This document shows positions 3,325 to 34,274 of a stretch of 64,000 nt of DNA, in pieces (position 1 is the stretch's first letter; every line of letters begins with the position of its first letter). The stretch is taken from IMG/VR virus record IMGVR_UViG_3300032053_000008; one strand, 5' to 3'. The notes under the pieces are model-generated. The model saw nothing but the letters and a program-made list of their open reading frames with translations, did no database searches and was not told the DNA's origin. The translations under genes were made by a program, and so were the position numbers. Origin of the DNA: a virus.

Positions 3325-3513
3325 ATGACCAAGGATAACTTAATCAAATTGGGCAGTTATAAAAAAGAAGTCCATGAAAAAGAAGAGATCTTACGTTGGC
3401 AAAAAGAACAAAAAACAGCCCAACGTTGGAGATTTGCTGGTGTTTGTATAATGTTTGTCAGCGCTATTGGTGTTACCGTGTCTTTAAGTCTGTTATTTTC
3501 TAAATTGTTCTAA
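3325..3513 (+). CDS. Small membrane-anchored hypothetical protein
   Basis: AGGGAG RBS; C-terminal hydrophobic helix. Confidence 0.55.
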   Translation: MTKDNLIKLGSYKKEVHEKEEILRWQKEQKTAQRWRFAGVCIMFVSAIGVTVSLSLLFSKLF

Positions 3514-3537
3514 AGTTTTTCCAAAAATAGCCGATAA
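3511..3537 (+). promoter_or_regulatory. Sigma-28 (FliA/SigD-type) promoter
   Basis: TAAAGTTT-N11-GCCGATAA, an exact match to the sigma-28 consensus. Confidence 0.85.
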
Positions 3538-3739
3538 GAGTTTTAGAAGCGGTTGAAATATACGCGACACAAGATTTGGTAGCCATATGCGATAAAAGTA
3601 TTGAAATATACAAGAAAGAATACTCAGAGAAGTAAGCCCGTTGGTCTTAAATCAATAGGTGTTGCTGCCTTATTCAGCATTAACCCCGGCCCGAATCCGC
3701 CTTAACCAAATGAGGCTTGCAATTAGCAAAGGAGATAAT

Positions 3740-4438
3740 ATGCTAAAGTTTTTACCGGTTTTTTTGTTTTTGGTTGGATGTCTTGGCACTAATAAAATAA
3801 TTAACAATTATTCCACCTACCCTGCGTATTATAGTCAATATGATTCAGATTTCCGTAATATTGTTATGGATTTTGAAGTTGATGCAGCTATGCAAAACTC
3901 ACCAGCAGATATAAAAAATATCAAATTAATCAAAATGGTAGAGGGTGAAATAGTTGGTAATGATCCAAACAATCCATTACCTATAAACGTTATCGCTATT
4001 TGCCAAAGACAAAATAACAACACCAATAACTATATACATGTAGAAATTAGCTGGTGGTATGATGCTTCAGATTATCAGAGAAAACAGGTTTTGTATCATG
4101 AACTCGGGCACTGTAGCACGCTAAGTCTAGGTCACAATGATACCAAATTTAAATGGTCTTGCGGTATTGGGTATAGCATTATGAAATCTAGTGCTGTTCC
4201 TGGCATTATAATGGAAAAATGTTGGCCAAGTATGGTGCAAGAGCTTTTTGACCCTCAATACAAGGCCATAACCGACAACAATGATTGTAAAAATGATGTA
4301 TGTAGTGTAAAAAAACAAGAAGAACTGAGTCCAGGAGAATTGTTGTGGTGGGCTGTGGTTACTTATGGCTATGGGATCTTTATTATTGTAACTTTGATGT
4401 GGATTTTGGCGATGTTATTTGAAAAGGGAGACCGCTAA
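3740..4438 (+). CDS. Lipoprotein zinc metallopeptidase (metzincin-like) with C-terminal TM helix
   Basis: Start moved to ATG 3740 (AAAGGAG RBS). Lipobox LVG-C; HELGHCSTLSLGH zinc motif; SIM Met-turn; C-terminal hydrophobic helix. Confidence 0.75.
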   Translation: MLKFLPVFLFLVGCLGTNKIINNYSTYPAYYSQYDSDFRNIVMDFEVDAAMQNSPADIKNIKLIKMVEGEIVGNDPNNPLPINVIAICQRQNNNTNNYIHVEISWWYDASDYQRKQVLYHELGHCSTLSLGHNDTKFKWSCGIGYSIMKSSAVPGIIMEKCWPSMVQELFDPQYKAITDNNDCKNDVCSVKKQEELSPGELLWWAVVTYGYGIFIIVTLMWILAMLFEKGDR

Positions 4439-4789
4439 TTTAATGGCTGCTCCAAGGGCTCCAGGAGCCACTGTACCGATAGCTACGGTAAGTATAACTA
4501 ATGTGGCCCTGTGAACCCAAACCTCTTTGGTCCAGCGTTTTGATTGTTCTGCCACTGGTTTAAGTTTTTCGTCTATTGAACGAAAAAATGCTGTATCTTC
4601 TTGAACATGTTGATCTAAACGAAGCTGTACTTGGGGGAATTGTGTGTCAAATTTGGTACTTAGCTCAGCTTGACCTATTTCTACGCCACGAAGGCGGTCG
4701 TCTATTTTTTCCATTTTGGTGTCAACTTTATTAATAGCCGCCATCAAAGTGTCAAACTTTTGTTCATCCATGATTAGTCCCCCTACCAA
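4415..4789 (-). CDS. Coiled-coil membrane protein (XhlA/holin-like)
   Basis: N-terminal coiled coil plus C-terminal TM; start probably at the internal MDEQK. Confidence 0.5.
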   Translation of the reverse strand: MVGGLIMDEQKFDTLMAAINKVDTKMEKIDDRLRGVEIGQAELSTKFDTQFPQVQLRLDQHVQEDTAFFRSIDEKLKPVAEQSKRWTKEVWVHRATLVILTVAIGTVAPGALGAAIKLAVSLFK

Positions 4790-4796
4790 CTAAAAA

Positions 4797-5324
4797 TTAG
4801 GTTTTGGCTATGTAACCAGCTTTTTGAATATTGTTTTCTACCCATGAAGGTCCGCCCTGTTCAGCATAAGATAAATCGATATTTGGTAACAATCTACTTA
4901 CCTTAAGTACGTTTGCACAAAACTCGCTGCAAACCATAGTATCAGGTCCATCTCTAAGCGGGTTTTTTATGTTTTTACCTAAAAATCCCGCAAACTTAAC
5001 CAAAGCCATACCCAACAACTGTTTGTAGCCATATGGATTACCAGACACATTATTGATAAAGATTAAAACATTTTTGATGTCTTTATGGTCAAAAACATCA
5101 AAACAATATTCTTTGATTATGATATTTTTATGAATATTGACAAAGTTGTCTTTAGTTAGTGTATGGATGTTCCATTCAGCGGCCTGCAGAACAATATCTT
5201 GACCAGTTAAAGGGTGGATGTAACTAATATAGCAATGAGAATAAGGCCTTTGTTCGGCCCAACGCAAAAGTTTTGAAAAAAGTAAATTTCTTTTGCTAAA
5301 CCCAACCTTTAGTTGCATGTTCAT
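4797..5324 (-). CDS. Permuted papain-like NlpC/P60 enzyme (YiiX/YaeF-like)
   Basis: YSHC (His) ... PYG ... CSEF (Cys) in circularly permuted order. Confidence 0.75.
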   Translation of the reverse strand: MNMQLKVGFSKRNLLFSKLLRWAEQRPYSHCYISYIHPLTGQDIVLQAAEWNIHTLTKDNFVNIHKNIIIKEYCFDVFDHKDIKNVLIFINNVSGNPYGYKQLLGMALVKFAGFLGKNIKNPLRDGPDTMVCSEFCANVLKVSRLLPNIDLSYAEQGGPSWVENNIQKAGYIAKT

Positions 5325-5827
5325 GTCCTTGGCATTCCAAGATAGTCTTGGATTCGGTTTCTAAAAAAGGCTAATTTAGCTTCTGTGATAAGAGTACCAT
5401 CCGGAACAACTTTTGTTAATTCGTCTAAAGCTACATAAAGAGATCCGGTCGAAATAGCAGCCTGAACGCCAGCTGTAGCTACAACAATAGATTTAATTTG
5501 TTCAATATTGTATCCAGACAAAGTATTTTGAGCACCGTAGTCTGCAATAAGATCTCTACCAAAGTTCATGGCATTGATAATTTTATTTTTAACAGTGTTG
5601 ATCATTATAGTAGAGGTTTGCGCAGTTTGATATGCAGTATACCATGCATGATAAGTATCGCGATGAGTCGCAACATACGCAGAATATTCTGCTTGCGTCA
5701 TAGTAAGCCAACCTGACGCAGCGTTTTCGCCATCAGCCAGCGCTTTAACCTCACACGGCCACACGCCCGGAATATTATCGGGATTTTGGGACGGAGATAA
5801 TTCAGAATAAAGAAGAACTGCTAACAT
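5321..5827 (-). CDS. Hypothetical protein, possibly fibre-associated
   Basis: Follows the fibre genes in the same operon; no motif recognised. Confidence 0.55.
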   Translation of the reverse strand: MLAVLLYSELSPSQNPDNIPGVWPCEVKALADGENAASGWLTMTQAEYSAYVATHRDTYHAWYTAYQTAQTSTIMINTVKNKIINAMNFGRDLIADYGAQNTLSGYNIEQIKSIVVATAGVQAAISTGSLYVALDELTKVVPDGTLITEAKLAFFRNRIQDYLGMPRT

Positions 5828-5837
5828 ATTAATTTCC

Positions 5838-7334
5838 TTATCTTTCTTGTATCCACATACACCAGTCTAGGTTTACTAAACTTGAAGTGGTTGAGTTGCC
5901 GCCAATTTTGTTCACCTTAGCAACCGGTCTCATTACAGCGGCAGCTAATGGGATGTTTGTCGTAGAACTACCAATCAGCACATATCCAGAACCAGAGTCT
6001 ACATAAAAATCTACGTTTGTTCTTGTGGCGTTTACTTCAGCTCTAACTTTATACCAAGCGTTAATTGCTATAGCTATTGTTGAGTTAACGGTTGTAGAGG
6101 TTGATGCGTTTCTTGTAATACCTTGCCATTGACCGGCGTTGATTCCAGATGAATAAACAAAATAAACACCGTTAATAGGATCACCAATAGTTACGGTGTC
6201 TTGAATACCAAGCCGAACTTCGTAAGTAATAGCGCCAGTGGATAATACCGGAACTCTGACTCTCCACTCTATTGTGGTGGGGCCAGTCCCAAGAGAAATT
6301 TTATTTATGTTGTTAAATGCAGATATTGCTGCAGTACCCGTGTTGATATTGTTTGTACCTGTGGCAACTGTTATGATACCAATCGGATCACCAGAAGCGG
6401 CGGCGGCATTAATGGTAGTAGCGCCACCTGCGTTGACTGTAGATGCCCAATCAAAAGGGTTGCCGCCAGCTCCGATAGTTGCCCAATTAAAATCATCGAA
6501 ATTGTATTTAGGAAAGCTTAAGTCGCGCCACGCGCCGCCGCGATAAAAATCAAAACCAACACCATTAAACCTGATGTTTCCATTGGTTGTGTCGGTAGAG
6601 TTACCAGGACGAATAGCATCAGTGGTAGAAATTTGTCCAGATACTTGCAGTTTAGTTGAACCATCATCAATTGTGGTACCAATTAAAACACGGCCAGAGG
6701 CGTGAATTCTTAATCTTTCCGATTCTGCCAAAGAACCGATAGGAGTCGTATAAAGTGCAATATGAGTTCCCATTGCACTATTAGTAAAGGTTTCTGCAGC
6801 AATAAAAGCGATTGAACCAGTTTGATTTGCATTAAATTGCGATGTTCCATATCCAATTGCATCGAACTCAGCAAATACTTGACCGGAAGTAATGGCGGTT
6901 GGGGAACCAACTGTACCGTTGGCTTTTCTTACGGTAATAACTGAAGCATTAGCTCCATAGCCGTCTACAAAAGCGCCATTATCCCCGGCAGTAGTATTAG
7001 CTACCACACTTAATGGCCTTAATGGTGTGTTTGTGCCAATACCAAGTCGGCTGTTAGTTTGGTCCCAAAATAGGTTGGTATTATTTTGGCTTATTGCTCC
7101 GGTAGAATTACTAAAAAGCACAGAGCCAGTAGTAAAAGCGCTAGATTGACTTGCAGTTAAAGACCAGGCAGTGTCGGCTGCTCCAACCTTAAGATAAGAA
7201 AAACCAACACTACCACTATTAAAGAAAGCTCTAGAGCCAATAGGGGCAGATGTTCCTGCTGCAGCGCCAGGATCTGCATCTACTTCTAGTAGCAGTATCT
7301 GGTTAAGAGTAACTTGCCCAGTTATTAAAGCCAT
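5838..7334 (-). CDS. Fibre/adhesin-like virion protein
   Basis: Gly/Thr/Asn-rich; FWDQTNSRLGIGTNTP and ERLRIHASGRVLIGT fibre repeats; beta-rich C-terminal domain. Confidence 0.7.
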   Translation of the reverse strand: MALITGQVTLNQILLLEVDADPGAAAGTSAPIGSRAFFNSGSVGFSYLKVGAADTAWSLTASQSSAFTTGSVLFSNSTGAISQNNTNLFWDQTNSRLGIGTNTPLRPLSVVANTTAGDNGAFVDGYGANASVITVRKANGTVGSPTAITSGQVFAEFDAIGYGTSQFNANQTGSIAFIAAETFTNSAMGTHIALYTTPIGSLAESERLRIHASGRVLIGTTIDDGSTKLQVSGQISTTDAIRPGNSTDTTNGNIRFNGVGFDFYRGGAWRDLSFPKYNFDDFNWATIGAGGNPFDWASTVNAGGATTINAAAASGDPIGIITVATGTNNINTGTAAISAFNNINKISLGTGPTTIEWRVRVPVLSTGAITYEVRLGIQDTVTIGDPINGVYFVYSSGINAGQWQGITRNASTSTTVNSTIAIAINAWYKVRAEVNATRTNVDFYVDSGSGYVLIGSSTTNIPLAAAVMRPVAKVNKIGGNSTTSSLVNLDWCMWIQER

Positions 7335-7361
7335 GTAGAGCTTCCTTTAGTGTATCAATTA

Positions 7362-9389
7362 TTAACCATTAAGAACTTTAACGTGAGCAAACCAGGAATA
7401 GTTGTTTGAGGCTGCTCCAGTGGCTCGTATTCTAAAAGTTGTTCCAGAAACATCAATAATACAATTAGTTGCATTATTAGCCTCAGAAGTAAAGTCCGAC
7501 TGGAGATTAAAAAGACTAACTGTACCTCCAATATTACTTACACGAGCGGTTCTAACATAACTAGATGCGTCACCAGTAGTGCCGCCAGTACCGCCAGTTC
7601 TGCGACCAATTACGCGAGCTTCAACCACAAGAGTTGTGTCGGTTGGAACTGTGTAGGTATATACAGAAGTTACGGTAGCATCGGTTGTATTAACAGTACC
7701 TTGTGCTTCAAAGTAGTTAATACCAGTTACTGCAACTTGTTTGTATATAGATCCGGTACCTAGCAAAACATTACCCTGAACATGCAATGTTTCTGTTGGA
7801 GCATTGATGCCAACACCTAAGCGCTTATTGGTATTGTCCCAGAAAAAGTTGGTGTTGTCTTGAGCTGGTAGGCCAGTAGTAGCTGCACCAAAATAAACGG
7901 AACCTGCTGTAATTGCACCATTTTCTATGATAGTACCAGCACTTGAAATCATTACTCGGTTGTTATTAAGAGCAGTAGAAGAATTGGTACCTCCATTTGC
8001 AATCGGGAGTATACCTGTTACTTCAGATGTCAGCGAGACGTTACTGGTAGATAAAACACCAGAAGTGGCCTTTACTACGCCTGTGCCAGTAAACCAAGTA
8101 GAGGCACCTGTACCGCCAGACAACAAAGCTTGACCAGCAGTACCAACTGCTGACAGAGCAAGACCGGTCGCAGTAGAATAAACATTAGCACCAGCCGCTG
8201 CGGTTAAGGAAGCGTTTGTACCGCCGCGCGTCATGGCTAGTTGCGCTTCAGAAGACATTACACCAGTACCATCATTAATTAAAACGTGGTTGGCTGATCC
8301 AGAAGCAAGCTTTGATCGAGCGATGTTGGCAGCAGCTGCAACTTCAGTGTTAGTAATACCACCAGTAGCAACTTGGAGACCTGAAGCGCCTTTAGACAGA
8401 GTAGTCCCGGCTAAAAGGTGATCCAATTGATTACCTGTAAAAGTAAGGCCAGAGTTAGTGGCCAAAGATACAGCAAATTGAGTACCAGTAAGAGACAAGC
8501 CGTTACCAGCGGTATAAGTACCTGCACCAGCAAATTGAACAAAAACAATATTAGAAGTACCAACAGTAATTGGCGCTGGTGTGGTTTGAACCCAAGCTGT
8601 GTCACCGTTTACAGCTCCTTCGTCAACAAAAACTGCAGCCCCAATAAACTCAGCCGCCAAATCCATGTCAACCGCTCTGGTCCATGCACCAGCCGCAGCA
8701 ACATAAACACCATTATTCGATTGTGTTGTTTGGTTTTTAACCAAAACTCGATCACCAGAAATAACGGTAATCGTATCAATGGTTAACAAACCAGACAAAA
8801 CAGCTAAGTTGGCTGTAGTAGCAACACGAGCCGCTAATTTCCAAGCTAAACCTTGAGCAACTGCATCAACATATGCTTTGGTTGCTGCATCTTGAGCTGC
8901 CGTTGGGTCTGCCATGCTAGTAATTTTTTGGGAACCCATATTAACAGCAGAACTAAAGGTTTTAGATCCTCCAATAGTTTGAGTGCCTTGGCTAAGAATA
9001 AAGTCGGCAGAGGTTACAGCGTCTCCTGGGTTAGGAATATTATAAGTTATACCAGCAGAGCGAGTTGGTTGAGAGGCGACACTGACGTTAATGTTTTGAG
9101 TATTTTGAACATAAACATCATCAACGTTGTTTCCTGAAGCTGGATACAAAGCTAAAGATCCGGCAACACCAGAACTAACCGTACCAGATGAAGCCGTAGT
9201 GGACACAAGTTCCCAAGCCGTGTTACCTGCTCCAGTCTTAACGTAGATTTGTCCAACTGGTGTACCGGAATTATTAATGGTACCAAAAGAACCTATAACA
9301 GCAGCAAATCCACCACCTGTACGAGGATCAGAATCTAGAGACAGTATCGCTACCTCTCCAAGAGTTAAAAGATCAACTAAAACAGCCAT
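7362..9389 (-). CDS. Fibre/adhesin-like virion protein
   Basis: DPTAAQDAATKAYVD, GDRVLVKNQT..NGVY, YTAGNGLSLTG and LPIANGGT motifs typical of phage head/tail fibres. Confidence 0.75.
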   Translation of the reverse strand: MAVLVDLLTLGEVAILSLDSDPRTGGGFAAVIGSFGTINNSGTPVGQIYVKTGAGNTAWELVSTTASSGTVSSGVAGSLALYPASGNNVDDVYVQNTQNINVSVASQPTRSAGITYNIPNPGDAVTSADFILSQGTQTIGGSKTFSSAVNMGSQKITSMADPTAAQDAATKAYVDAVAQGLAWKLAARVATTANLAVLSGLLTIDTITVISGDRVLVKNQTTQSNNGVYVAAAGAWTRAVDMDLAAEFIGAAVFVDEGAVNGDTAWVQTTPAPITVGTSNIVFVQFAGAGTYTAGNGLSLTGTQFAVSLATNSGLTFTGNQLDHLLAGTTLSKGASGLQVATGGITNTEVAAAANIARSKLASGSANHVLINDGTGVMSSEAQLAMTRGGTNASLTAAAGANVYSTATGLALSAVGTAGQALLSGGTGASTWFTGTGVVKATSGVLSTSNVSLTSEVTGILPIANGGTNSSTALNNNRVMISSAGTIIENGAITAGSVYFGAATTGLPAQDNTNFFWDNTNKRLGVGINAPTETLHVQGNVLLGTGSIYKQVAVTGINYFEAQGTVNTTDATVTSVYTYTVPTDTTLVVEARVIGRRTGGTGGTTGDASSYVRTARVSNIGGTVSLFNLQSDFTSEANNATNCIIDVSGTTFRIRATGAASNNYSWFAHVKVLNG

Positions 9390-9399
9390 TTAATACCTC

Positions 9400-10356: not shown

Positions 10357-10371
10357 TGAAATTGCTCCTAT

Positions 10372-12349: not shown

Positions 12350-12377
12350 TAAAGTTTTCATACAATTGTGCCGATAT
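12350..12377 (+). promoter_or_regulatory. Sigma-28-type promoter
   Basis: TAAAGTTT-N12-GCCGATAT, directly upstream of the plus-strand operon (RBS AGGAGG, start 12416). Confidence 0.75.
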
Positions 12378-12415
12378 AAGATTAAGATTCGGTTAAATTA
12401 CTTAGGAGGTAAAAA

Positions 12416-12646
12416 TTGTCAACAAAAACGGTAGCTAACTCGATACTTCAAGATTTACAGACTATTATAGAAAGGACTCAAAACGAACTACAAGACAAAG
12501 TTGGTATATTCCCAGGAACTATGGTAGCAATAGCTCAATCTAGGGTCAATTCGTTTTTGATAGAATGCGGGTTAAACAAAGTTTATATTATAGTAGATTG
12601 CAACTCAAACGGCAAATTAACACTAGAAACCTTGGAGGGAACATGA
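12416..12646 (+). CDS. Hypothetical protein
   Basis: Strong AGGAGGT RBS, TTG start. Confidence 0.6.
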   Translation: MSTKTVANSILQDLQTIIERTQNELQDKVGIFPGTMVAIAQSRVNSFLIECGLNKVYIIVDCNSNGKLTLETLEGT

Positions 12647-12996
12647 GCGACAGAGAAAAAATTGACAGTTTGGTTGATTTGTTTATGGATGAAATGGATA
12701 GACTTGGTGTCATTTGCATAATTGGCGGAATTGAAACAAAGACAGACACTTTGATCAATATGTCTAATTCATCATCAATAGCAGATTTACTTGAGGTAAT
12801 ATGCTATACTAATGCTGTTGCGTCTGGTGTTATAGCTGAAGCTACATCTTTATTGCCTGAGATAATTGCAGCTGATTTATATGATGTCACGCTAGATATG
12901 ATACAGGAAATGAAAGATGGTCAATTAAATGCCCCAATAAAAGAGTTTGGAGCTAAACTTGCAGTAGTAAAAAAGAAAAACGACGACCTTAACTAA
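12643..12996 (+). CDS. Acidic hypothetical protein
   Basis: Start moved to MSDREK (GGAGG RBS; ATGA overlap with the preceding gene). Confidence 0.6.
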   Translation: MSDREKIDSLVDLFMDEMDRLGVICIIGGIETKTDTLINMSNSSSIADLLEVICYTNAVASGVIAEATSLLPEIIAADLYDVTLDMIQEMKDGQLNAPIKEFGAKLAVVKKKNDDLN

Positions 12997-13007
12997 TTGG
13001 AGTAATA

Positions 13008-13232
13008 ATGTCTAATATTATACCGTTCCCAAAGAAAAACGATCATGGACGTACACCTCTACATGTTAGTCGTATTGATGGCAAACTTAAAGGTAGTCCT
13101 TATTTACATAAAGATGAAGATCAAGATTTTGGCGCTAGAATGGAAAGAATTAAAGCCAGTCTAAAAAGAATTAATGACCTTATGGATGAGCTAAAAAATG
13201 CTTCTAAACCAAGACATGATTCTAACGATTAA
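13008..13232 (+). CDS. Small hypothetical protein (NIIPFP N-terminus, C-terminal coiled coil)
   Basis: GGAG RBS; operon context. Confidence 0.65.
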   Translation: MSNIIPFPKKNDHGRTPLHVSRIDGKLKGSPYLHKDEDQDFGARMERIKASLKRINDLMDELKNASKPRHDSND

Positions 13233-13542
13233 CATTTTGGCTATTTTGTCAGAAAAGCCAATCCCTATGGTGCAAATAGCCAAAGAGGTTGGTACAACGT
13301 ATCACTACGTACACAAAATAACCAAAAAACTCAACAAAAAGAAATGGATAGCTTCTAGGTCTGGGCCTCATGGAGGGATTGTGTGTGTGCCTAGATTTTT
13401 GAATCTAAGAGATATTATTGAACTATGGGAAAGTCCCCATTCTTTGGCTAGGGCTGCCGCTAAAAACAAAGGGGCAGCTATAGCTTATGAAGAATGGCTT
13501 ATAGCTGCCGAACAGGTCAGAGTTAGGACGTTTGGCGGATGA
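13198..13542 (+). CDS. Rrf2-family winged-HTH regulator
   Basis: IAKEVGTTYHYVHKITKKL..WIASRSGPHGG..L.LRDII matches the Rrf2 signature; the Fe-S cysteine cluster is absent. Confidence 0.75.
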   Translation: MLLNQDMILTINILAILSEKPIPMVQIAKEVGTTYHYVHKITKKLNKKKWIASRSGPHGGIVCVPRFLNLRDIIELWESPHSLARAAAKNKGAAIAYEEWLIAAEQVRVRTFGG

Positions 13543-13546
13543 TTAT

Positions 13547-14041
13547 CTAGTCATTATTTGAATCTGATAGAACCTTTGCCCTAAAGGTTCCTGTCATTTT
13601 ATACCATTCTTTATACAAAAAAGCATTAGATTTACCGTAGTTACATCTACTGCAGCAAACTACGCAACTCTTATTGGTATAACCTCCATCATTTTCTTTT
13701 CTGTCTAAAAAGTATTTACCAGAATTAAAAGATTTCCATTCAATTAAATCATAACAATAGTGACATCTTTTTATCTCAACAAACATCAAGAAATCATTAA
13801 AAGTAATATCTATTGGTAAATTTTTCTTTTTGGCGGTATTTACCAATGATTTATACGACTTATTAAATGGTTCCATTCTTTGAGAACAAACAGTACATTT
13901 ATCGGTCACCCTTTTAAAATGTCTTACTCTTAAGACATTGTCGCAGTCGGCGCACTTGAAAATATAAACATGATGTCCAGATGGTTGAAGCTCTTTTCCA
14001 ATAGCCAAATCCTTATTAAACTTAAACACCGCAGACACCAC
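13547..14041 (-). CDS. Free-standing HNH (His-Me finger) endonuclease
   Basis: CxxC pairs, CHYC, LDR..N..GY...VVCCSRCN. Confidence 0.7.
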   Translation of the reverse strand: MVSAVFKFNKDLAIGKELQPSGHHVYIFKCADCDNVLRVRHFKRVTDKCTVCSQRMEPFNKSYKSLVNTAKKKNLPIDITFNDFLMFVEIKRCHYCYDLIEWKSFNSGKYFLDRKENDGGYTNKSCVVCCSRCNYGKSNAFLYKEWYKMTGTFRAKVLSDSNND

Positions 14042-19238: not shown

Positions 19239-20648
19239 TTATTTCTTCTTTGCTTTAGATGCCTTAGCATCTAAAGCAGCTTTCTTTTCTTTAGCTCTTA
19301 CGAAGTTATGTTTGTCGTCTTCAGCAAACTCTTTAGAATCTTCTTGTTCGCTTGAAACAGATTTATCTGGATTCACAGGGTTAGCCCAAGAATTATCCGA
19401 ACCCTTTTTTTTGTAATATTTAGGTTCCCACTCTTCTTTAACTAATGATTTAACCATATCCTTAGACCAGAAAGTACCCTTAGAGTTTTCCTGTTGTCCA
19501 CCTGAACCGTTTTGGCAATCTTTTGGAGCTTCTACAGTTTTAGGTGGGCAATTTGTCAAGTTTTTAGCTAACTTGATTAACAAAAGCTTAGAAGGATTAG
19601 AAATAAGCTTTAAGTCTTTGTTCTTTTTGTCTTTTAATGGCATTGCCATGATTTGCAAAGTCTTTTGCAGACTTTCTGCATATCCGGTACCCATTTCACC
19701 AGCTGCCTTGCTTAAAAGGAGCAGTTCATTTTTCATGAACTCTGGGAAACTGACAGCAAATTGGTCCCATTTAGCAAACTTAGGGATAAACGGGCTAAAA
19801 ATTTCTTTTTTAATAATTTGACGATCTTTTGCCGCAGTAAGATCTTTATCAATCTTTATTGCATGCATGTCTTGAGAATGTGCTTTTATTCTTGCAGTTC
19901 GCAGATCCCAAGGTCTCCCCTTTACTTCACCTCCACGGCTTTTAGCACGGTCTTTTGACTGATTTTTTTCCTCTGTTAAATCTGCATCCGATTCATTAAC
20001 GCTACCCTTGTTCATCATTCCCTCAACTGAAGACTCATTAGAAGGTATCATAGAAGCATCTGCTTTTACAATAGCTTTTTTAGAGGCTTGCTGCCGAGAC
20101 TGAATAGTATCTAGGGCAGTAGTTGGACCTTTAGGGGCGGTTGGTGCTGGAGCTGGAGCAGCTCCTTTACCATACAGTTTAGCCTTAAGGGCTTTAGTGT
20201 TGGCAGCTTGAGCGATAGGATGATTCATGTCTTTATAGTTCAAAACAGGCGCATTGGCTTCATTTGAAGCAGGTTTGGCGTTCATTTGCTGATAATTCAG
20301 AGTATTTCCAGTAGGTTCCGGTTTTTTAGGAGCTGGATTAAGTAAAGACAAGTCAGACTGTGGTTTATTGGTAGCCATGGTTGCTACTGCGGCTTGACCG
20401 GCTGGACTGGCTACGGCAGGCTTAGCTTTATGGGTAAGTGCATCCATAGCACTTTGAGCGGCTGGATTAAGACTAGCTTTAGCCATAGTAGGCTTAGGGG
20501 TAGCCATAGCTGCCGGAGCTTTTGGGGCAGCCGGAGCTTTTATTGCTGGAGCTGCTGCAGGCTTTGGAGCCGACATTTTAGGGGCAGCTGGGGCAGACGG
20601 TGCCGCTGGAGCTGTCGCTTTAGGCATACTTGGTTCTGCGGGTTTCAC
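19239..20648 (-). CDS. Low-complexity Pro/Ala/Lys-rich protein, probable internal head protein
   Basis: GTG start with AGGAG RBS; disordered composition; many hydrophobic-x-K-[A/S/G/N] motifs. Confidence 0.55.
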   Translation of the reverse strand: MKPAEPSMPKATAPAAPSAPAAPKMSAPKPAAAPAIKAPAAPKAPAAMATPKPTMAKASLNPAAQSAMDALTHKAKPAVASPAGQAAVATMATNKPQSDLSLLNPAPKKPEPTGNTLNYQQMNAKPASNEANAPVLNYKDMNHPIAQAANTKALKAKLYGKGAAPAPAPTAPKGPTTALDTIQSRQQASKKAIVKADASMIPSNESSVEGMMNKGSVNESDADLTEEKNQSKDRAKSRGGEVKGRPWDLRTARIKAHSQDMHAIKIDKDLTAAKDRQIIKKEIFSPFIPKFAKWDQFAVSFPEFMKNELLLLSKAAGEMGTGYAESLQKTLQIMAMPLKDKKNKDLKLISNPSKLLLIKLAKNLTNCPPKTVEAPKDCQNGSGGQQENSKGTFWSKDMVKSLVKEEWEPKYYKKKGSDNSWANPVNPDKSVSSEQEDSKEFAEDDKHNFVRAKEKKAALDAKASKAKKK

Positions 20649-20695
20649 GTAAAACTCCTAGAGATAGAAAACCATGGATAAGATTAAGTTAAAAC

Positions 20696-23356
20696 TTAGA
20701 TCTTTGTGGACTTACCAGACGGAAGCATTTTGACCGCCGATAAATCGCTAGTATGTTGATTTTTAACGGGTATTTTGTCGTATAGCATAACTGAGTTAGC
20801 GAAAGTAGGGGACTCATGTCCGCTAGCTTTCCAGCCTTTATACCCCATAGACTTCAGTTCATTGTGGACCAGGTCTGGGTGACTAAGCGCGTGTTCGCTT
20901 GGTCCGTAGTGCTCTTTGTGCTTGTCTTTTACCTTGGCAAACACTTTGTCTGGGTCTTTGGACAAATCGTAGATGTCTTTGTCTTTGACTTGTATATGGT
21001 ACCTGGACAAGTTGTTGAACATTTGTTCAGCGTCTTCTCCATTAGATCCGTAAGTATGCAAATAGTTTGCAGGTTTAAAACCTGGCATATTATGGTTAAG
21101 GTATTCCCGGCTTTGCTGGATACGGGCCTTTTCTTTGCCTGCCTGACCGGTAAACTGGAAAGATGGGTCTAGGGACTGAAGGTCTGGATGCCTACTAAAA
21201 TGGACTAGATCTAGCACCTTAAAATTATCTTCAGCTTTGGATATTTTGTCCCAAACACCCATTGCTGCGGGGGTTTGAAGCGAGGAACCTAAAACCTCTT
21301 TACCGGAAACTTTTTGGGCATGTTGATACATTGCAGTTGCCAGCCCTTTTCTTTGATGTTCAGGGAAAACATTAGTCATACCAGGCATAAGTTTATTTTC
21401 ATGGAGTTCGTGAGGAACAATTATGGTATGGCCAACTATCTGACCTTGTGGACTTTTTGCATAAACGTGAAGTTCATCGTGCTCTTCCTTGTCAGACAAA
21501 TCTTCATCTTGATTTGCCTTCCATTCATGAAAAACATGATAACCTTCTTTTCGCCAATCACCATTTTGGCCTTTTTCTAAGTCTTCAGCTTTAGATATAG
21601 CTTCAGACACCTTGCGATTGTGTTTTGTGTTTGACATCACAGCCAAAACAGCTTCAGTCAGGTTTTGGCCCATACCTGCCGTAAGGTTAATAGAATACTT
21701 TGTTTCCAATTTGGTCATAAAGTCGTAAAGTTCAGATTTTTCGGTAGGCGGCAGTGTAAATATAAAATCGCTACCAGCAAACCCCAGGAAATCTCCTGCG
21801 TGCTCTTCTATAAAAGACTCTATGTCTATTTTGATGTGTTGCAGCTTTTTGATTTTGTCGGTTAGCTCTTTTGTGCTGTTAGATTCCAGGGAGTCAACTA
21901 TGAAATCATATATGTCCTGGAAAGACAAACACACGGTAACCGGTTTGTATTTTTTGTCTTTTGGGTGACTTTTTTCTAGGGACTTAAAAAGCTCTTCGCT
22001 TGGCTTAGGCCAGCCAAGGTTTACCATAGTTTCTATGGCTATTTGCCTTTGTTCGGATTTACCAAAAGGACGATTTTTTTGACCCCATAAAGCATAAGCA
22101 TCCTCTGATTGTTGACCATCAGTACCTCTAATCTTCTTACCAGTTAACTTTTCTGCCATTACATATGCCGATGTTGCTAACCCTTTACGTTGATGTGTAT
22201 CTTCGGTATCACTATTAACAATACCCAGATGTTTTCCAGTATGATCGTGTTCGAAAATATAAAGCCCTGCCAACTTACCGCTTGGATGATAGGCATGAAT
22301 AATTACGCCATATTTATTAACTTTAGGGGTAAGTTTATAGCCTTCTTTTTGCCAATCACCATTTTGACCTTTTTCTAGGTCTTCGGATTTGTTAACAATA
22401 CCTTTACGCTTAGCCATTTCTCCAGCCCATTTGCTGACGTTTCTGTCTGGATCTCTAAGGCCCATCTGAACCGTGGTTTCATCTGCACCAGGATGAGACA
22501 ATAAAAGCTTTTTTATTCCCCACTTAGGATGGTTCATCATAAAGTTAAGTTCAGCAGGTTTATAGTTTTTATGTTTAGCCATATAAGGGGCTGCTGCAGC
22601 ACCATGAGTATGAGGGGCACCAAAGTCACTGTTAACTATGTCGGTAGTTGGGAACTTGGTGTTGTCTCTAGGCACATTTTTGTGGGGGCTTACAATAAAT
22701 TCGTCTTCGTGTCCGTGACCGGCTGGATCTGTGTCAGGGTGACCTAACTCATAGCTGAACCAAACGTTCTTTAAAGGAACGTGCTGGTGATGTTCATGTT
22801 GACCAAATTGTCCTTGAGTTTTGTCGGCTATGGAATACAAAGCATGGTCATCTCCCCTTTGGCTTGGGGTTATGTTCATGTTCCTAGCCAGACGCAAATG
22901 GGGGGTACCATTAAGTTGGTCTACGGCCTTAGGGGCATTTTGGGTAATAGTGTCATGCAAGCTACGCTGGTGAGCTAGTAGCTGCGGAACAATATGAGGG
23001 TTTTGGGCTAGACCGGCGCTAAGGCTATCTGTAGTTATGTGACCAATCTTTTTCGCGGCATTGCCTTGTTGGTGATGACTCAAAAACGCCTGGTCCATCA
23101 TTTTTTGTTGGTCTGGCTTAGATGCCGAATAAGCGTCAGCATTTTCAGATCTGTGGATAGCGTACTTTAGCAAAAGAGATGAAGGTGAATGGGGAGAATG
23201 CTTATAGCTAGAATACATCTCATTTAGTGTAGCATTTGGCTTAAAGTGCGGCGTAGGTGCGCTAATAGGCAAACTAGAATGGACCTGTAGCCCAATTTGC
23301 TTGTCTTGGCTGGTACTAGAAGACAATGCACTTGGGTGTTTAGTCATCGTTATCAT
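20696..23356 (-). CDS. Polyvalent multidomain protein: ART-like, HEAT, GNAT, mCpol-like, GNAT, ART-like
   Basis: Two HQRKGLAT acetyl-CoA motifs; R...S...EDEFIV ART pattern; AGMGQNLTEA mCpol-like motif; C-terminal HFS..LDP..GYKG pattern. The GNAT calls are firmer than the others. Confidence 0.7.
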   Translation of the reverse strand: MITMTKHPSALSSSTSQDKQIGLQVHSSLPISAPTPHFKPNATLNEMYSSYKHSPHSPSSLLLKYAIHRSENADAYSASKPDQQKMMDQAFLSHHQQGNAAKKIGHITTDSLSAGLAQNPHIVPQLLAHQRSLHDTITQNAPKAVDQLNGTPHLRLARNMNITPSQRGDDHALYSIADKTQGQFGQHEHHQHVPLKNVWFSYELGHPDTDPAGHGHEDEFIVSPHKNVPRDNTKFPTTDIVNSDFGAPHTHGAAAAPYMAKHKNYKPAELNFMMNHPKWGIKKLLLSHPGADETTVQMGLRDPDRNVSKWAGEMAKRKGIVNKSEDLEKGQNGDWQKEGYKLTPKVNKYGVIIHAYHPSGKLAGLYIFEHDHTGKHLGIVNSDTEDTHQRKGLATSAYVMAEKLTGKKIRGTDGQQSEDAYALWGQKNRPFGKSEQRQIAIETMVNLGWPKPSEELFKSLEKSHPKDKKYKPVTVCLSFQDIYDFIVDSLESNSTKELTDKIKKLQHIKIDIESFIEEHAGDFLGFAGSDFIFTLPPTEKSELYDFMTKLETKYSINLTAGMGQNLTEAVLAVMSNTKHNRKVSEAISKAEDLEKGQNGDWRKEGYHVFHEWKANQDEDLSDKEEHDELHVYAKSPQGQIVGHTIIVPHELHENKLMPGMTNVFPEHQRKGLATAMYQHAQKVSGKEVLGSSLQTPAAMGVWDKISKAEDNFKVLDLVHFSRHPDLQSLDPSFQFTGQAGKEKARIQQSREYLNHNMPGFKPANYLHTYGSNGEDAEQMFNNLSRYHIQVKDKDIYDLSKDPDKVFAKVKDKHKEHYGPSEHALSHPDLVHNELKSMGYKGWKASGHESPTFANSVMLYDKIPVKNQHTSDLSAVKMLPSGKSTKI
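21539..22390 (-). repeat. Two copies of K[S/A]EDLEKGQNGDW[Q/R]KEGY (22337-22390 and 21539-21592)
   Basis: 16 of 18 residues identical; each copy directly precedes a GNAT domain. Confidence 0.95.
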
Positions 23357-25258: not shown

Positions 25259-26472
25259 TGCTGCTTAGCCTTTTGTTGTTGATTGTTGGCTTTTACCGAT
25301 ATATCAGTACCATCGGTAGCCTGAACTTGGCCTGAGGCCATTGAGCGCCATACTTCTTTACCGTTTACCAGAACTTTTTTGTAGTTGCCCTTGCGGGTTC
25401 CAACAGGGAAACGGATACCAGACATAGCCTGAGGACCAGAAGAACTGACGCCCTTTTTTTCTAGGTCTTGTTCAGATTTTTGAACTTGCTTGGCGCTGGT
25501 GATCAATTTCTGGATCATAGACATAGTTTGCTGGAAAGCTTTAGGGTCCTTGCTGGCCATAGCCATAATCTGAGGTATTTGCGCCTTAACGTCTTTAAGT
25601 TTGTCCATTAATTCTTGGTTGTGGTCGGCGGTAGCTTCTTTGGTAGCATCATCGACTTCTTGAGCTACTTCTTGTGCTGCCTGTTCTTGTTCCTGTCCGT
25701 CACCTTCGCCCTGTTGTTGTCCAGGTGCCTGTTGTTGTTGAGGCTGACCACTAAGTTGACCAAGCAAATCAGTAGTATTGGTATTAGCATGGGCATCTGG
25801 GTCTTCCTGGCCTTGCGGCTGTTGTTGTTGCTGGGCTTGTTGTTGTTGCATCATTTGCTGTTGTTGTTGAGCGGCTTGTTCGATTTCCCCGGCACCAAGC
25901 ATTTCATTTATGGCTTGAATAAACTGGGCTTCAGCGCTAAAACTTTCTTTTAGAGACATACGCTTGGGCACTGGATTAGATTTTTGGTCTATAACTTTTT
26001 GGTAAGGCTTGTCATCTGGCTGTTCTGGGTCAAATAGGTTGGTAGGCAAACTGACGTTTTGATTTATGTTTGTTCTTGAATTGGAAGTTTTTGTAATTTT
26101 TTCTTGGTAAGTATCTGCCGGATTAAAAAGTTCAACTTTACCAGTTTTATAAGATTTCTTGGCAGCCATTGCCGCTTCTTGGAAATCTAATCCAACACCA
26201 ATAGCCAGTCCATCTCCAGCAGTTTCGGTAAAGTTTTCAATTAAATTAGGTAGTTCTGCCGCTACATCAATAGGTATTTCCATAGCTATAAAGTCTGGAT
26301 TACAAAATGGCATAGATCCACCGTGGGATTCCACAGTAGATTTCATTTTGTCTATAAGTCCCTGTAATTCAAACTGATAATGGTTGGCTACGCTAAATCG
26401 GCCCTCTTTGGCCGAATTAATTAGTTTGTCTCTTACTGCATCCGCAAATATAACTGCCCATACCTTACTCAT
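25255..26472 (-). CDS. Protein with N-terminal mCpol/GGDEF-like palm domain and Gln-rich linker
   Basis: AIGVGLDFQEAAMAAKKSYKTGK; polyQ; KSEQDLEKKG motif near the C-terminus. Confidence 0.55.
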   Translation of the reverse strand: MSKVWAVIFADAVRDKLINSAKEGRFSVANHYQFELQGLIDKMKSTVESHGGSMPFCNPDFIAMEIPIDVAAELPNLIENFTETAGDGLAIGVGLDFQEAAMAAKKSYKTGKVELFNPADTYQEKITKTSNSRTNINQNVSLPTNLFDPEQPDDKPYQKVIDQKSNPVPKRMSLKESFSAEAQFIQAINEMLGAGEIEQAAQQQQQMMQQQQAQQQQQPQGQEDPDAHANTNTTDLLGQLSGQPQQQQAPGQQQGEGDGQEQEQAAQEVAQEVDDATKEATADHNQELMDKLKDVKAQIPQIMAMASKDPKAFQQTMSMIQKLITSAKQVQKSEQDLEKKGVSSSGPQAMSGIRFPVGTRKGNYKKVLVNGKEVWRSMASGQVQATDGTDISVKANNQQQKAKQQ

Positions 26473-27592: not shown

Positions 27593-27595
27593 TTA

Positions 27596-27991
27596 TTACC
27601 CAAGGTAAGAAGAGTCTGCCACGTCAAAAATAGCGGCACCAGAACCAGATACCTTGTAAGCATAAATTCCAGGAGGAACTATCAAATAAGTATAGTCTAA
27701 GGGACGCAAAGGGTAGCCTGTTCCAAGAGCGGCCACAGCCGTACTTGTTCCATCATCAAAAGCCACATAAAGAGCGGTAGCCAATGAATTGAAAAAGCAA
27801 ACCATTTGACCTGGAACTGCAGTTAAAGTGGTAAAACTAGTTGAAGCTAGCCCAACAGGAATCATTAACCCTTCAGAATTAATGGATTTTGAGGCACCAG
27901 CTTCATCGTTATAGCGCATTTCAGTGTTGCTATAACCACCAGAAATCTTGTCTGTTAGTTTTTTTCTTTTTAAATCAGTAGTATACGACAT
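27596..27991 (-). CDS. Hypothetical virion protein
   Basis: GGGAG RBS; preceded by the AATCTTACCCTTA element. Confidence 0.6.
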   Translation of the reverse strand: MSYTTDLKRKKLTDKISGGYSNTEMRYNDEAGASKSINSEGLMIPVGLASTSFTTLTAVPGQMVCFFNSLATALYVAFDDGTSTAVAALGTGYPLRPLDYTYLIVPPGIYAYKVSGSGAAIFDVADSSYLG

Positions 27992-28007
27992 TTAGATAAA
28001 CTCCCTA

Positions 28008-28021
28008 TAAGGGTAAGATTA
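28008..28021 (-). promoter_or_regulatory. Candidate phage late promoter TAATCTTACCCTTA
   Basis: 14-nt identical copy at 38618-38631; both sit just upstream of an RBS; shorter AATCTT cores precede other structural genes. Confidence 0.55.
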
Positions 28022-31164: not shown

Positions 31165-32060
31165 ACATGTCCGCTAAAGAATTTGCTGGAAGTTATCTGC
31201 TTGATTCTTTTGATATATTTTTGAGCTTGTTCGTCTGCATTTTTGCGCTTTTCTTGGAGCAAAGAAAACATGTTGTCGTTAACTGATTGGCTAAGACCAT
31301 CGATGCCTAAGGACTGAGTAGCGTACCGGAACTGCGGTATAAGATTATCCAAGACAAGCATGGTAGCCATGCACCCAACAGCTTCATTGATAATAACCGG
31401 CACTTGGCCTTCGGCAGTACCAAAACCGCACACAACTTCAGTGTTCCAATAAGATGGAACCCAGCCGGACTGGCCGATGAACTGCATAATGGTTGCCCCA
31501 CCAGCCGGAGCCGATACGTCAGCTCCAATAGCCGAAAAGGCAGGGTTCAGGGGATTAACAATAAGGGTACCTCTAGAAGCATTAGCCATATCAATCCATT
31601 GATTAGGTATCTTATAGATCAAATTGGTAGCAGGGTACTGGGATGTTTCTTGGTCTGGATTGCTATTATATGCAGCAGCCCTAATAGACAAATCAATAAC
31701 GGTCTGGATGGGTTTATTTGGTACTTCCAGTGTCATAAAAGAGAAGTATAAGTTAGGGTCAAAAGGCAAACGGTACCGGCGCACAACCTGGAATATTTCT
31801 ACCTGACACATCAATTCAAAGTCATTGGCAGCTCTCTGGATAAAGTCCTTAAGCATGGCATTAGTTATTTTTTGCTTAGTTACAGGTGAAGTAAGTGGAA
31901 TACCCCACAAAAAACGATCCATAAGTACATCTGGGGTAATGAATGGCTCAACTCGGGTTAAGCCACTAGCACCCTCCAAGACTTTTTCTGGATATACGGA
32001 ACTAATACCCTTTTTAGAGTTCGGAGCACCATAGTCATTAGTCCCTTTGATCTTGGCCAT
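31161..32060 (-). CDS. Head-tail adaptor protein
   Basis: VPVIINEAVG and SLGIDGLSQS motifs of SPO1-like adaptors. Confidence 0.65.
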   Translation of the reverse strand: MAKIKGTNDYGAPNSKKGISSVYPEKVLEGASGLTRVEPFITPDVLMDRFLWGIPLTSPVTKQKITNAMLKDFIQRAANDFELMCQVEIFQVVRRYRLPFDPNLYFSFMTLEVPNKPIQTVIDLSIRAAAYNSNPDQETSQYPATNLIYKIPNQWIDMANASRGTLIVNPLNPAFSAIGADVSAPAGGATIMQFIGQSGWVPSYWNTEVVCGFGTAEGQVPVIINEAVGCMATMLVLDNLIPQFRYATQSLGIDGLSQSVNDNMFSLLQEKRKNADEQAQKYIKRIKQITSSKFFSGHV

Positions 32061-32062
32061 AA

Positions 32063-32500
32063 TTACACCCTATAAGATTTTTGACCGCTAAGATGTATAG
32101 CCAGGTCTGTAGCTGTTTTAAAGAAAGTCATTTTAGTTTGAGTAGGGGTTAGGTTAGGTGGGGTAACCATGCTAATTTCATCTAGCTGCACCTCAAATCC
32201 GCCAAAGGAAATGCAGTCAGATGGGCCAACAGTTACTTTATAGATAGACTGGTCACCAGCAAAAGCTTGTACACCAACACGCTCAAAAGCATCGGCTTCA
32301 TCTAAACTAGCAAAAAGAACAGTAACTGTGTTGCTGATATCGCCCTGGGGTATATAACGAATAAGCTCACCACTACAGTTTGTTTTGTAGAGTTGAAAAT
32401 ATAGATCCTGGGTGTTGGTCTTTTGGAAATGAAGTTCGTCTTCTACGCAATATTCATTAGGACCACAAACGTTGCTTAGGAACTTGAAATAATACATCAT
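32063..32500 (-). CDS. Hypothetical virion protein
   Basis: Operon context. Confidence 0.55.
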   Translation of the reverse strand: MMYYFKFLSNVCGPNEYCVEDELHFQKTNTQDLYFQLYKTNCSGELIRYIPQGDISNTVTVLFASLDEADAFERVGVQAFAGDQSIYKVTVGPSDCISFGGFEVQLDEISMVTPPNLTPTQTKMTFFKTATDLAIHLSGQKSYRV

Positions 32501-33096
32501 TACTTTGGCCCTTTTTGCATAGGACGATTAAACCCTAAAACAGTTGTGGAAGGTAAAAAACAAAACTCTGGCATACCAATATGGTCTACTAGACCGTATT
32601 TTTTAGCTTGCATAGGAGTCATAAAAAGATCTACGTTGCCTTGACCTTTTATTAATTCTTTCCATTCATCTGCACTAAGTTTGGTATCTTCACCTAGCTG
32701 TTTAATCATCTTTTTATTAAGGTTATCTAGCATTTTAGCTGAATTTTGAAATTCAGCGTTTTTACCCCCTATTTCACTTAGGGAAACTTCATGAACCATA
32801 AAATCTGATTCATGGGTAGCAAAACGATATCCAGCAGAACCGGAAGAGGCTAAAAGAGCACCGCAAGACATTGCTTTACCTACTACAACAGTTGCTACAG
32901 GTTTAGAGGCTCTTTTAATAAGAGATCTCATTGCTTGGCAATTATGATATTGTCCGCCGTAACTATTTATAAATATAGTGATTTCATTAGAGTCTGAAAA
33001 GAACTCTAAAGCATAAAAATGCTGGTAAAACTTTTCTACATCCTCATCTTCAAATTCATTTACCCAAATATAAGGCAGAACGTCTGGGGATGTCAT
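32500..33096 (-). CDS. clpP: ClpP-family serine protease
   Basis: FINSYGG, AMSCG (Ser), MVHE (His), DLFM (Asp), AKKYGLVDHI. Confidence 0.9.
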   Translation of the reverse strand: MTSPDVLPYIWVNEFEDEDVEKFYQHFYALEFFSDSNEITIFINSYGGQYHNCQAMRSLIKRASKPVATVVVGKAMSCGALLASSGSAGYRFATHESDFMVHEVSLSEIGGKNAEFQNSAKMLDNLNKKMIKQLGEDTKLSADEWKELIKGQGNVDLFMTPMQAKKYGLVDHIGMPEFCFLPSTTVLGFNRPMQKGPK

Positions 33097-33104
33097 AAAA
33101 ACTC

Positions 33105-33899
33105 CTAGTCCAGTGATACTGGTTCACCTATGGTAATATTAGGGTCTGATTCGTCTTTTTGTGGGATTTTAACAATAATTTCGGTATGTTGGTGCTCTTT
33201 AAGAGTTCTTTTTAAGAGACCTTCTACAGTTTTCTTTAGCTTAGCCTCAGAAGGGGATTGCTTAAGGTGCTCTTGACGTTTTTTCCTTAAATTGCCGCGC
33301 TTTACGGCTGGAACTAAGTCATCAGCTAAACCTAGATTCACTGCATCTTGGGCTGACATCCAGGCGTCTCTACCTGAACTAAGGAGTTGTTTATAGAATT
33401 TTTCATCCATGATAGAATTGTCAGCATAAAACTTACACATCTTGTCGTGTAACAGGTCGCCTTCAATCATATCAATCTTATTGTTGGTATATTTGTCTTG
33501 CATAAACGAGCTGTGTTCATGCAGCATTATTCTGGTGTTTGGATACAAATACCTTTCATCACACGCAACCATCAAAAGACTGGCAGCAGAACATATCCAG
33601 CCGCCGCCATAGAACTTGATTTGACAACTAGAGGCCAAGATAAAGTCAATAAGATAAAAGGCATCGGCGGTACTTCCACCGCTAGAGTTCATGTACAAAG
33701 AAATTGGGGCTTTGGGGCTATCATGGATCATCCTGTTCATGCCACGTATAGCTGTTTCCACAGTTTTGGAATTAAATGAAGTAAAGTCGTCTTCGTCAAT
33801 ATTGTCAGGGGAAATACCAAAATGAATAATACGATTTTTAGTGTCTATTCCATAGACTAGAAAGTCATCTATTGCTGTCTTTTCTTTCTGTGTCGCCAT
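33105..33899 (-). CDS. clpP: ClpP-family serine protease (second, divergent paralogue)
   Basis: YMNSSGG, CSAA (Ser), MLHE (His), DAWM (Asp), AVNLGLAD; C-terminal extension. Confidence 0.88.
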   Translation of the reverse strand: MATQKEKTAIDDFLVYGIDTKNRIIHFGISPDNIDEDDFTSFNSKTVETAIRGMNRMIHDSPKAPISLYMNSSGGSTADAFYLIDFILASSCQIKFYGGGWICSAASLLMVACDERYLYPNTRIMLHEHSSFMQDKYTNNKIDMIEGDLLHDKMCKFYADNSIMDEKFYKQLLSSGRDAWMSAQDAVNLGLADDLVPAVKRGNLRKKRQEHLKQSPSEAKLKKTVEGLLKRTLKEHQHTEIIVKIPQKDESDPNITIGEPVSLD

Positions 33900-34239
33900 T
33901 AGAATAAACCTTTACCTTAACGGATGTTTCATCTAGCTTGTATGGACTAAGCAACCCGTAACTAAAACATTCTATCCGATTCATTCCAGTTAGGCAAGAA
34001 TCTTTGTTCGTAATAGACTTAAGCGATTGATTATAATAGGTAAAGTATACCGGCTGGTCTGTGTCTATTTCAAGCTTAAAAGAAACATCCTTAGATATCC
34101 AACACTTAAGGTTTTGGTCAAACACCGAACATACACCTATAATCTTGTTTGACTGACATTCCTTTAGTGGGTATAGTGTATTCGAGTCGGCATAAGCCGA
34201 TGGTAGATCTACATCAAAGAAAAAGGTAGCTACGTCCAT
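33865..34239 (-). CDS. Hypothetical protein
   Basis: Start moved to MDVATFF (AGGTG RBS). Confidence 0.45.
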   Translation of the reverse strand: MDVATFFFDVDLPSAYADSNTLYPLKECQSNKIIGVCSVFDQNLKCWISKDVSFKLEIDTDQPVYFTYYNQSLKSITNKDSCLTGMNRIECFSYGLLSPYKLDETSVKVKVYSNGDTERKDSNR

Positions 34240-34247
34240 TTTACACC

Positions 34248-34274
34248 TAAAGTTTTTTGCCAAAGTGCCGATAA
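34248..34274 (+). promoter_or_regulatory. Sigma-28 promoter
   Basis: TAAAGTTT-N11-GCCGATAA exact consensus, 25 nt upstream of ATG 34300. Confidence 0.85.

Follow-up and report, generated by a model that had tools for sequence, protein, structure and literature searches.

In textbook cases, a phage begins infection at sigma-70-type promoters or supplies a polymerase of its own. Promoters of the flagellar sigma-28 factor (FliA) follow, in Escherichia coli, the consensus TAAAGTTT-n11-GCCGATAA (PMC2859248), and in Bdellovibrio bacteriovorus a FliA-type attack-phase motif has been published as TTAAG-N16-CCGATA; of the attack-phase promoters mapped in that species, 92 of 140 carry it (Karunker et al. 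2013, PMC3627812). Myxococcus phage Mx1, a described relative of the virus analyzed here, is a 170-kb contractile-tailed phage (PMC10720576). Here we analyze a stretch of 64,000 nucleotides (the window) from the IMG/VR virus record IMGVR_UViG_3300032053_000008, an uncultured phage from sediment in which three copies of the sigma-28 consensus precede small plus-strand gene units. The original prediction made from this DNA held that sigma-28 promoters drive these islands and couple an early or accessory programme to the motile state of the host, plausibly the attack phase of a predatory bacterium, an idea that is attractive because of the share of FliA-type promoters among the attack-phase promoters of B. 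bacteriovorus. Host-polymerase-dependent phage promoters are already known, and the proposed use of an alternative sigma factor is the variant here; no published report of phage promoters read by sigma-28 was found in the full-text literature, of which the coverage was partial, so that novelty is not proven. Our analysis suggests that the host's own sigma-28 probably switches non-structural genes of this phage on.

Three sigma-28 consensus sites precede plus-strand gene units in the window

The motif TAAAGTTT-N(10-13)-GCCGATA is present in exactly three copies in the window, all on the plus strand, at positions 3511, 12350, and 34248 (Table 1), just as the original prediction had stated. Letter for letter it is identical to the E. 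coli sigma-28 consensus (PMC2859248). Such a set of sites is not expected by chance: none of 100 dinucleotide-preserving shuffles matched it and the base-frequency estimate is ~0.001, with GCCGATA alone being found 14 times vs. 3.2 expected. Genes of the window are located almost entirely on the minus strand and serve head, tail, and replication functions, and the three plus-strand units sit among minus-strand virion operons. The genes named for these units were likewise recovered, Pfam and PHROG matches pointing at an HExxH lipoprotein, an Rrf2 unit, and a dCMP deaminase unit. One point needs correcting: the site at 3511 does not head an isolated island, since the TAA of the candidate promoter serves as the stop codon of an upstream plus-strand open reading frame (ORF) of 62 amino acids (3325–3513). 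A leader of ~200 nt connects promoter 1 to the ATG of the metallopeptidase gene, AGGAGG and a start codon follow 38 nt past the −10 box of promoter 2, and an ATG lies 25 nt past the −10 box of promoter 3.

A class of sites across the phage genome

The window corresponds to bases 40815–104814 of a single linear IMG/VR virus contig of 136,843 bp with 41% G+C, 84% complete according to CheckV. The same phage is represented in other assemblies by ENA contigs of 145,284 and 158,575 bp, the longer one under ERZ27247916, and its complete genome measures ~159 kb. Extending the motif scan to both strands of the full 136,843 bp, with at most one mismatch, identified 11 sites. Their −35 box, TAAA(GTTT), is intact at all eight bases in the three window sites and in 10 of the 11 genome sites; the spacer measures 11 nt at nine sites and 12 nt at two, and the −10 box keeps CCGATAA at 10 of 11 (CCGATAT at 12370) with a variable first base; behind the box, a G is conserved and T-rich bases follow. 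At 8 of the 11 sites, an ORF of 45 amino acids or more begins within 5–80 nt and is preceded by a ribosome-binding site, compared with a random-position background of 7–14% (p about 2e-5). Three sites are placed directly after intrinsic terminators. Intergenic space is scarce in this genome, in which just 30 gaps exceed 35 bp. None of the 11 sites heads a virion gene, the first genes being non-structural throughout. Units other than those of the window comprise a Fis-type helix-turn-helix (HTH) protein, small membrane proteins, an SLT transglycosylase, a recombination unit (Zn-ribbon/SbcC/RuvC/phosphoesterase), and a unit including a gene that we take, by eye, to be ThyX. Judged from sequence, every feature of sigma-28 promoters that can be tested is found at these sites, and we infer that they depend on sigma-28.

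Sigma-70-type promoters were considered as the main early class and rejected, since the window shows no enrichment of sigma-70-like sites (34 vs. 34.2 expected; 13 vs. 8.3 expected). Outside the window, a perfect sigma-28-type site with the usual GGTTTAAGTAA leader is located on the plus strand at contig 21273–21299 (L007:1273–1299); it is accompanied by neither a ribosome-binding site nor an ORF and aims into the 3′ end of a convergent minus-strand late gene, where it may yield an antisense or small RNA.

Sigma-28-type sites are conserved in closer relatives

Searches with the phage sigma factor and the capsid protein retrieved closer relatives than those present in IMG/VR. In two of these, with capsid identities of 89% (L095) and 69% (L099), TAAAGTTT-N11/12-nCCGATAA heads a counter-strand island beside the capsid gene, the very position of promoter 3. 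Spacer and leader of these two sites are unrelated to those of the phage analyzed here, and the cargo of L099 is different as well. The site before the Zn-ribbon/SbcC unit is kept in L090 and in L092, a genome of only 32% G+C, and L093 and L094 contain one site each. Comparison of 21 sites located information in the two boxes only, the −35 box being the best conserved element with ~2 bits per position. Two boxes kept while the remainder has diverged is what selection on a working two-box promoter would be expected to leave. No sigma-28-type site was detected in the whole Mx1 record or in three IMG/VR relatives, one of them 99% complete. With 11 copies, placement before ribosome-binding sites and start codons, and orthologous positions in relatives, the motif behaves as a promoter class.

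Querying with the boxes plus the GGTTTA leader returned from metagenomes only a 10-kb contig of another phage of the same sample series and an unrelated 1.4-kb contig, and nothing from collections of genome contigs or viral contigs. The former contig (L015; Ga0315289_10016827, 10,060 bp) belongs to a distantly related phage, and its two sites of the sigma-28 type share the spacer flavour TTTTCCAAAAACA and the GGTTTA leader with the phage analyzed here, a likeness that suggests either a shared host or a shared promoter style.

The phage sigma factor ends before region 4.2 and accompanies a single-box motif

The sigma-70-family protein encoded by the phage (Table 1) matches Sigma70_r2 weakly (18–21 bits) and the general sigma-70 model TIGR02937 with 36.7 bits. 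Its alignment with E. coli RpoD covers region 2 up to residue 564, and the protein ends five residues later, before the region-4.2 HTH, which is the −35-reading part. All 18 members of this sigma family are 325–359 amino acids long and end 2–17 residues past the region-4.1 motif LKLKxG, and an orthologous sigma of Mx1 (28% identity) has the same end point. Because the Mx1 orthologue and all 18 homologues end at the same place, the missing region 4.2 is, by this comparison, a natural trait of the family and not a truncation artefact. The original prediction had also allowed for a sigma-28-like factor encoded by the phage itself, of which no trace was obtained: FliA_WhiG (TIGR02479) and Sigma70_r4 (PF04545) have no match in the six frames of the 137-kb contig, region 4.2 (PF08281) yielded only an unconvincing hit of E 0.055 in a head-module ORF, and the genes called in the adjoining 10 kb on either side of the contig have no sigma family on record. 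What the search for a phage sigma did reveal is one sigma-family gene, without region 4.2 and associated with another motif. A 64-amino-acid HTH protein was considered as a detached sigma region 4 and rejected, as it matches no sigma family.

This other motif is a single box, TAATCTTA/T, positioned 20–60 nt before many minus-strand structural genes, with the six copies in the window (Table 1) at 25–80 nt from such starts. The 8-mer TAATCTT[AT] is itself not over-represented; of its 23 sites, 9 are followed by a gene start within 80 nt (p 0.003) and 18 lie on the late-gene coding strand. With its AATCTTA core, the late-type motif heads genes in L090 and L092 too, and in Mx1 CAATCTTA is found six times in forward and never in reverse orientation, four of the six copies lying 15–35 nt before annotated starts, including that of the portal gene. 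As Mx1 harbors the sigma and no sigma-28-type site, the presence of the phage sigma is uncoupled from that of the sigma-28-type motif; in the genomes compared, it is the single-box motif that travels with it. The TAATCTTA box is most likely read by the phage's own sigma, and the region-4-less sigma together with the single-box late promoter constitutes a candidate temporal switch.

The two motifs come together at window 12370–12384, where the plus-strand −10 box of promoter 2 overlaps a minus-strand TAATCTTAT box face to face. The reverse complement of the −10 box with its following bases (cTTAAaCCTTATCGG) resembles the late motif (cTTAATCTTATCC).

The dCMP deaminase points to a probable host among Bdellovibrionota

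Named best database matches of the dCMP deaminase belong to Oligoflexia, Bdellovibrionia, and Bdellovibrionales. Of 201 Bdellovibrionota genomes sampled, 23 have a chromosomal gene whose product is 63–69% identical to this protein. In the two control phyla, identity peaked at 40% among 301 Pseudomonadota and at 45% among 151 genomes drawn around a Geoanaerobacter metagenome-assembled genome. All 23 Bdellovibrionota genomes with a close deaminase encode FliA above the curated cut-off. In a comparison of 20 kb of phage DNA with 401 Bdellovibrionota genomes, the deaminase gene was the only match at DNA level besides short repetitive matches, and spacer-like exact matches were absent. We conclude that the host is probably a member of Bdellovibrionota. 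The Bdellovibrio-like host of the original prediction thus gains support from a single gene, the deaminase being closest to this phylum and its bearers encoding FliA throughout; B. bacteriovorus itself lies outside the candidate lineage.

Approximately 55 nt within a 405-amino-acid head-module gene (window 25814–25869) match several Bdellovibrionota genomes at 79–91%, sometimes in tandem, and probably represent a repetitive coding motif and not spacers. Further host clues were obtained neither from tRNAs, none of which were found in the genome, nor from Atlas look-alikes of the metallopeptidase or of an HODM-like protein, nor from cluster member names. A difference in spacing from the Bdellovibrio FliA motif had been considered and was dropped, given that TAAAG-N15-CCGATA is counted 14 times in B. 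bacteriovorus and TTAAG-N16-CCGATA eight times.

Gene units and further features of the genome

Coordinates of the candidate promoters, the units behind them, the late-type boxes, and other features are compiled in Table 1. The 232-amino-acid lipoprotein has a weak PhageMetallopep match only (PF18894), and its structural look-alikes in the Atlas belong to the PhageMetallopep and M10 families. A structured leader or riboswitch before its gene was considered and rejected (fold z-score −0.32, no Rfam family). Assignment of the Rrf2-family regulator relies on a Pfam match of E 1.6e-11, that of the dCMP deaminase on dCMP_cyt_deam_1 (Pfam E 4e-18) and the PHROG dCMP deaminase family (E 2e-39), and the gene calls of the three-gene unit agree with independent calls on other contigs of the same phage. 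The major capsid protein gene occupies 35203–36612 on the minus strand.

Table 1 Candidate promoters, associated gene units, and other features (window coordinates unless the contig is named)
Feature	Position	Strand	Details
Candidate promoter 1	3511..3537	+	−35 TAAAGTTT 3511-3518, 11-nt spacer, −10 GCCGATAA 3530-3537
HExxH lipoprotein, phage metallopeptidase-like, 232 aa	3740..4438	+	Ribosome-binding site and ATG, lipobox LVGC
Candidate promoter 2	12350..12377	+	−35 TAAAGTTT 12350-12357, 12-nt spacer, −10 GCCGATAT 12370-12377
Four-gene unit	12416..13542	+	76 aa, 117 aa, 74 aa, 114-aa Rrf2-family regulator (13198-13542)
Terminator-like hairpin	13570-13590		After Rrf2 unit
Candidate promoter 3	34248..34274	+	−35 TAAAGTTT 34248-34255, 11-nt spacer, −10 GCCGATAA 34267-34274
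Three-gene unit	34300..35061	+	57 aa, dCMP deaminase (34470-34892), 58 aa
Strong terminator hairpin	35067..35091	-	Downstream of capsid gene, 3′ border of island 3
Late-type box TAATCTTA	12377..12384	-	61 nt before minus-strand 440-aa gene
Late-type box TAATCTTA	20679..20686	-	38 nt before 469-aa head-module gene (19239-20648)
Late-type box TAATCTTA	28014..28021	-	~30 nt before ATG at 27991
Late-type box TAATCTTA	38624..38631	-	~25 nt before ATG at 38606
Late-type box TAATCTTT	50489..50496	-	~34 nt before ATG at 50462
Late-type box TAATCTTA/T	53160-53167	-	Before structural gene start
DnaE-type Pol III alpha subunit, >1,100 aa	60639-63971
Divergent GroEL-like chaperonin, 598 aa	contig 111240-113036
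Sigma-70-family protein, 331 aa	contig 115710-116705 (L001:1021-2016)	+	10.9 kb past window end; only sigma-like gene

RecA-like, primase, and helicase genes are also encoded by the phage. The ~22 kb located outside the 136,843-bp contig form a one-strand block of small genes (~30–250 amino acids), which resembles a typical early region. In the gap before a 437-amino-acid tail-fibre-like gene (contig 7639–7852; L006:7639–7852), a ~41-bp unit is repeated three to four times in tandem, its copies being about 82–91% identical by self-BLAST, and a G+C-richer, ORF-free segment of ~345 nt lies between an 81-amino-acid gene and a lipoprotein gene at contig about 9790–10135 (L006). This segment has no Rfam match, and Rfam families were found nowhere in the genome.

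Discussion

The sites described here are likely read by a host sigma-28 (FliA-type) holoenzyme that needs no help from the phage and starts its non-structural programme, in a host that would belong to Bdellovibrionota and with a possible link to the life stage of that host. Since the sites are, by sequence, perfect sigma-28 promoters and the phage gives no FliA or region-4 signal, host sigma-28 is the simplest reader. Host sigma-28 polymerase would start small early or accessory genes and regulators (Rrf2, Fis-type HTH), and the same programme would include nucleotide metabolism (dCMP deaminase, ThyX unit), recombination (SbcC, RuvC), and envelope-acting proteins, the units behind the sigma-28-type sites of the window forming counter-oriented islands within virion-gene operons. 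Virion genes would use the second type of promoter, the single TAATCTTA box read by the region-4.2-less phage sigma. In the best-studied species of that phylum, FliA controls most of the programme of the free-swimming attack phase. Sigma-28 polymerase would thus be ready in the attack-phase cell, presumably the only stage that the phage reaches, so that the phage would find it on entry. A broader version, which we put forward tentatively and rather doubt, is that a large and widespread Mx1-like clade of ~160-kb Bdellovibrionota phages hands its whole pre-late transcription to host sigma-28, as master sigma of the non-growing, free-swimming attack stage, and then employs its own region-4-less sigma on the AATCTTA box.

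Several observations weigh against the host sigma-28 reading. The link to Bdellovibrionota comes from one gene, the dCMP deaminase, while the Rrf2 gene has no match in 201 Bdellovibrionota genomes and the one match of the capsid protein in 401 such genomes is 30% identical and sits on a 3.9-kb contig. B. bacteriovorus itself is devoid of a close deaminase, which places the candidate host in a different branch of the phylum, one that may not be predatory. Exact motif counts range from 0 to 14 per Bdellovibrionota genome and do not separate hosts. The ~22-kb block was examined as gene lists and precomputed Pfam hits, 10 kb beyond each contig end. Neither class offers a recognisable promoter for the replication genes (DnaE, primase, helicase), so that the transcription map drawn from the two classes is incomplete. 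Finally, the sigma orthologues of the motif-bearing closer relatives, 44–64% identical to that of this phage, could have changed their specificity relative to that of Mx1.

This last point bears on an alternative that we consider unlikely, namely that a phage factor reads the sites, either the region-4.2-less sigma aided by a second protein that binds the −35 box (a split sigma or appropriator) or, among the small proteins without annotation, a sigma that has diverged beyond detection. A sigma-70-family protein aligning with RpoD regions 2 to 4.1 is indeed encoded (TIGR02937, 36.7 bits), the sigmas of the motif-bearing subclade are closer to it than the 28% of Mx1, and among the ~22 kb of small early genes, seen as gene lists, many small proteins have no family assignment. 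Yet the family uniformly lacks the −35-reading HTH, whereas the −35 box is the best conserved element, and a distinct single-box motif, common to Mx1, already fits the phage sigma. Moreover, Sigma70_r4 and FliA signals are absent from the six frames, the 64-amino-acid protein has no sigma match, and one would have to assume that an unrelated reader converged on the two sigma-28 boxes as well as on their spacing.

Somewhat less probable again is that host sigma-28 reads the sites with no life-stage meaning, either since the factor is present in all infectable cells or since the sites are add-on promoters that serve accessory genes, with other promoters running the essential early programme. In the window, two of the three units do carry dispensable-looking cargo, and cargo varies between relatives; the lack of recognisable promoters at the replication genes would suit add-on promoters, and a candidate lineage excluding B. 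bacteriovorus also speaks for this alternative. However, sigma-28-type sites head core functions as well (the SbcC/RuvC unit, the ThyX-containing unit, and the dCMP deaminase), and the missing enrichment of sigma-70-like sites argues against it. Very improbable, finally, is a role of the boxes as operators for a phage DNA-binding protein such as the Rrf2 or Fis-type HTH regulators and not as promoters: such regulators are phage-encoded and adjoin these sites, and the −10 box continues into a conserved G and T-rich bases, a region whose reverse complement resembles the late motif, but operators of dimeric regulators are usually palindromic, whereas the sites are asymmetric, consist of two boxes in fixed orientation to the gene and at a fixed distance from the ribosome-binding site, follow terminators, and equal a known sigma consensus.

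If host sigma-28 does read these promoters, the phage would develop only in cells in which the alternative sigma is active, and its success would hinge on host physiology, for instance on motility or, in a predator, on the attack phase. Under the broader version, an alternative sigma in place of sigma-70 would tie the development of the phage to the life cycle of a predator. Because the capsid protein family counts ~1,500 metagenome members at E below 1e-50 and exact consensus sites cluster in other IMG/VR contigs too, this strategy may be common yet undescribed.

Among known systems, Mx1 (OR576727.2) shares with the phage a capsid of 55% identity, a syntenic helicase-sigma pair, and an AATCTTA-type motif before structural genes, and differs in having no sigma-28-type site in 169,621 bp. 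Myxococcus, the host of Mx1, is non-flagellate. Phage T4 encodes gp55, a late sigma without region 4 that serves the single-box promoter TATAAATA. Like gp55, the phage sigma goes without region 4.2 and a single short box, TAATCTTA, precedes virion genes; unlike gp55-type late sigmas, it retains regions 3 and 4.1.

The class 3 flagellar (FliA) promoters of E. coli and Salmonella and the SigD promoters of Bacillus have the same −35 and −10 boxes and the same 11-nt spacing (PMC2859248). In contrast to FliA class 3 promoters, the phage sites belong to the genome of a lytic-type phage and precede genes unrelated to flagella, leave the first −10 base free (nCCGATAA), and reach a density of ~80 sites per Mb vs. 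few exact copies per bacterial genome. The attack-phase promoters of B. bacteriovorus are chromosomal with mapped start sites, whereas the phage sites are known from sequence alone; both have the same type of motif, the bacterial promoters likewise serve a broad non-flagellar programme, and the phage deaminase points to the same phylum.

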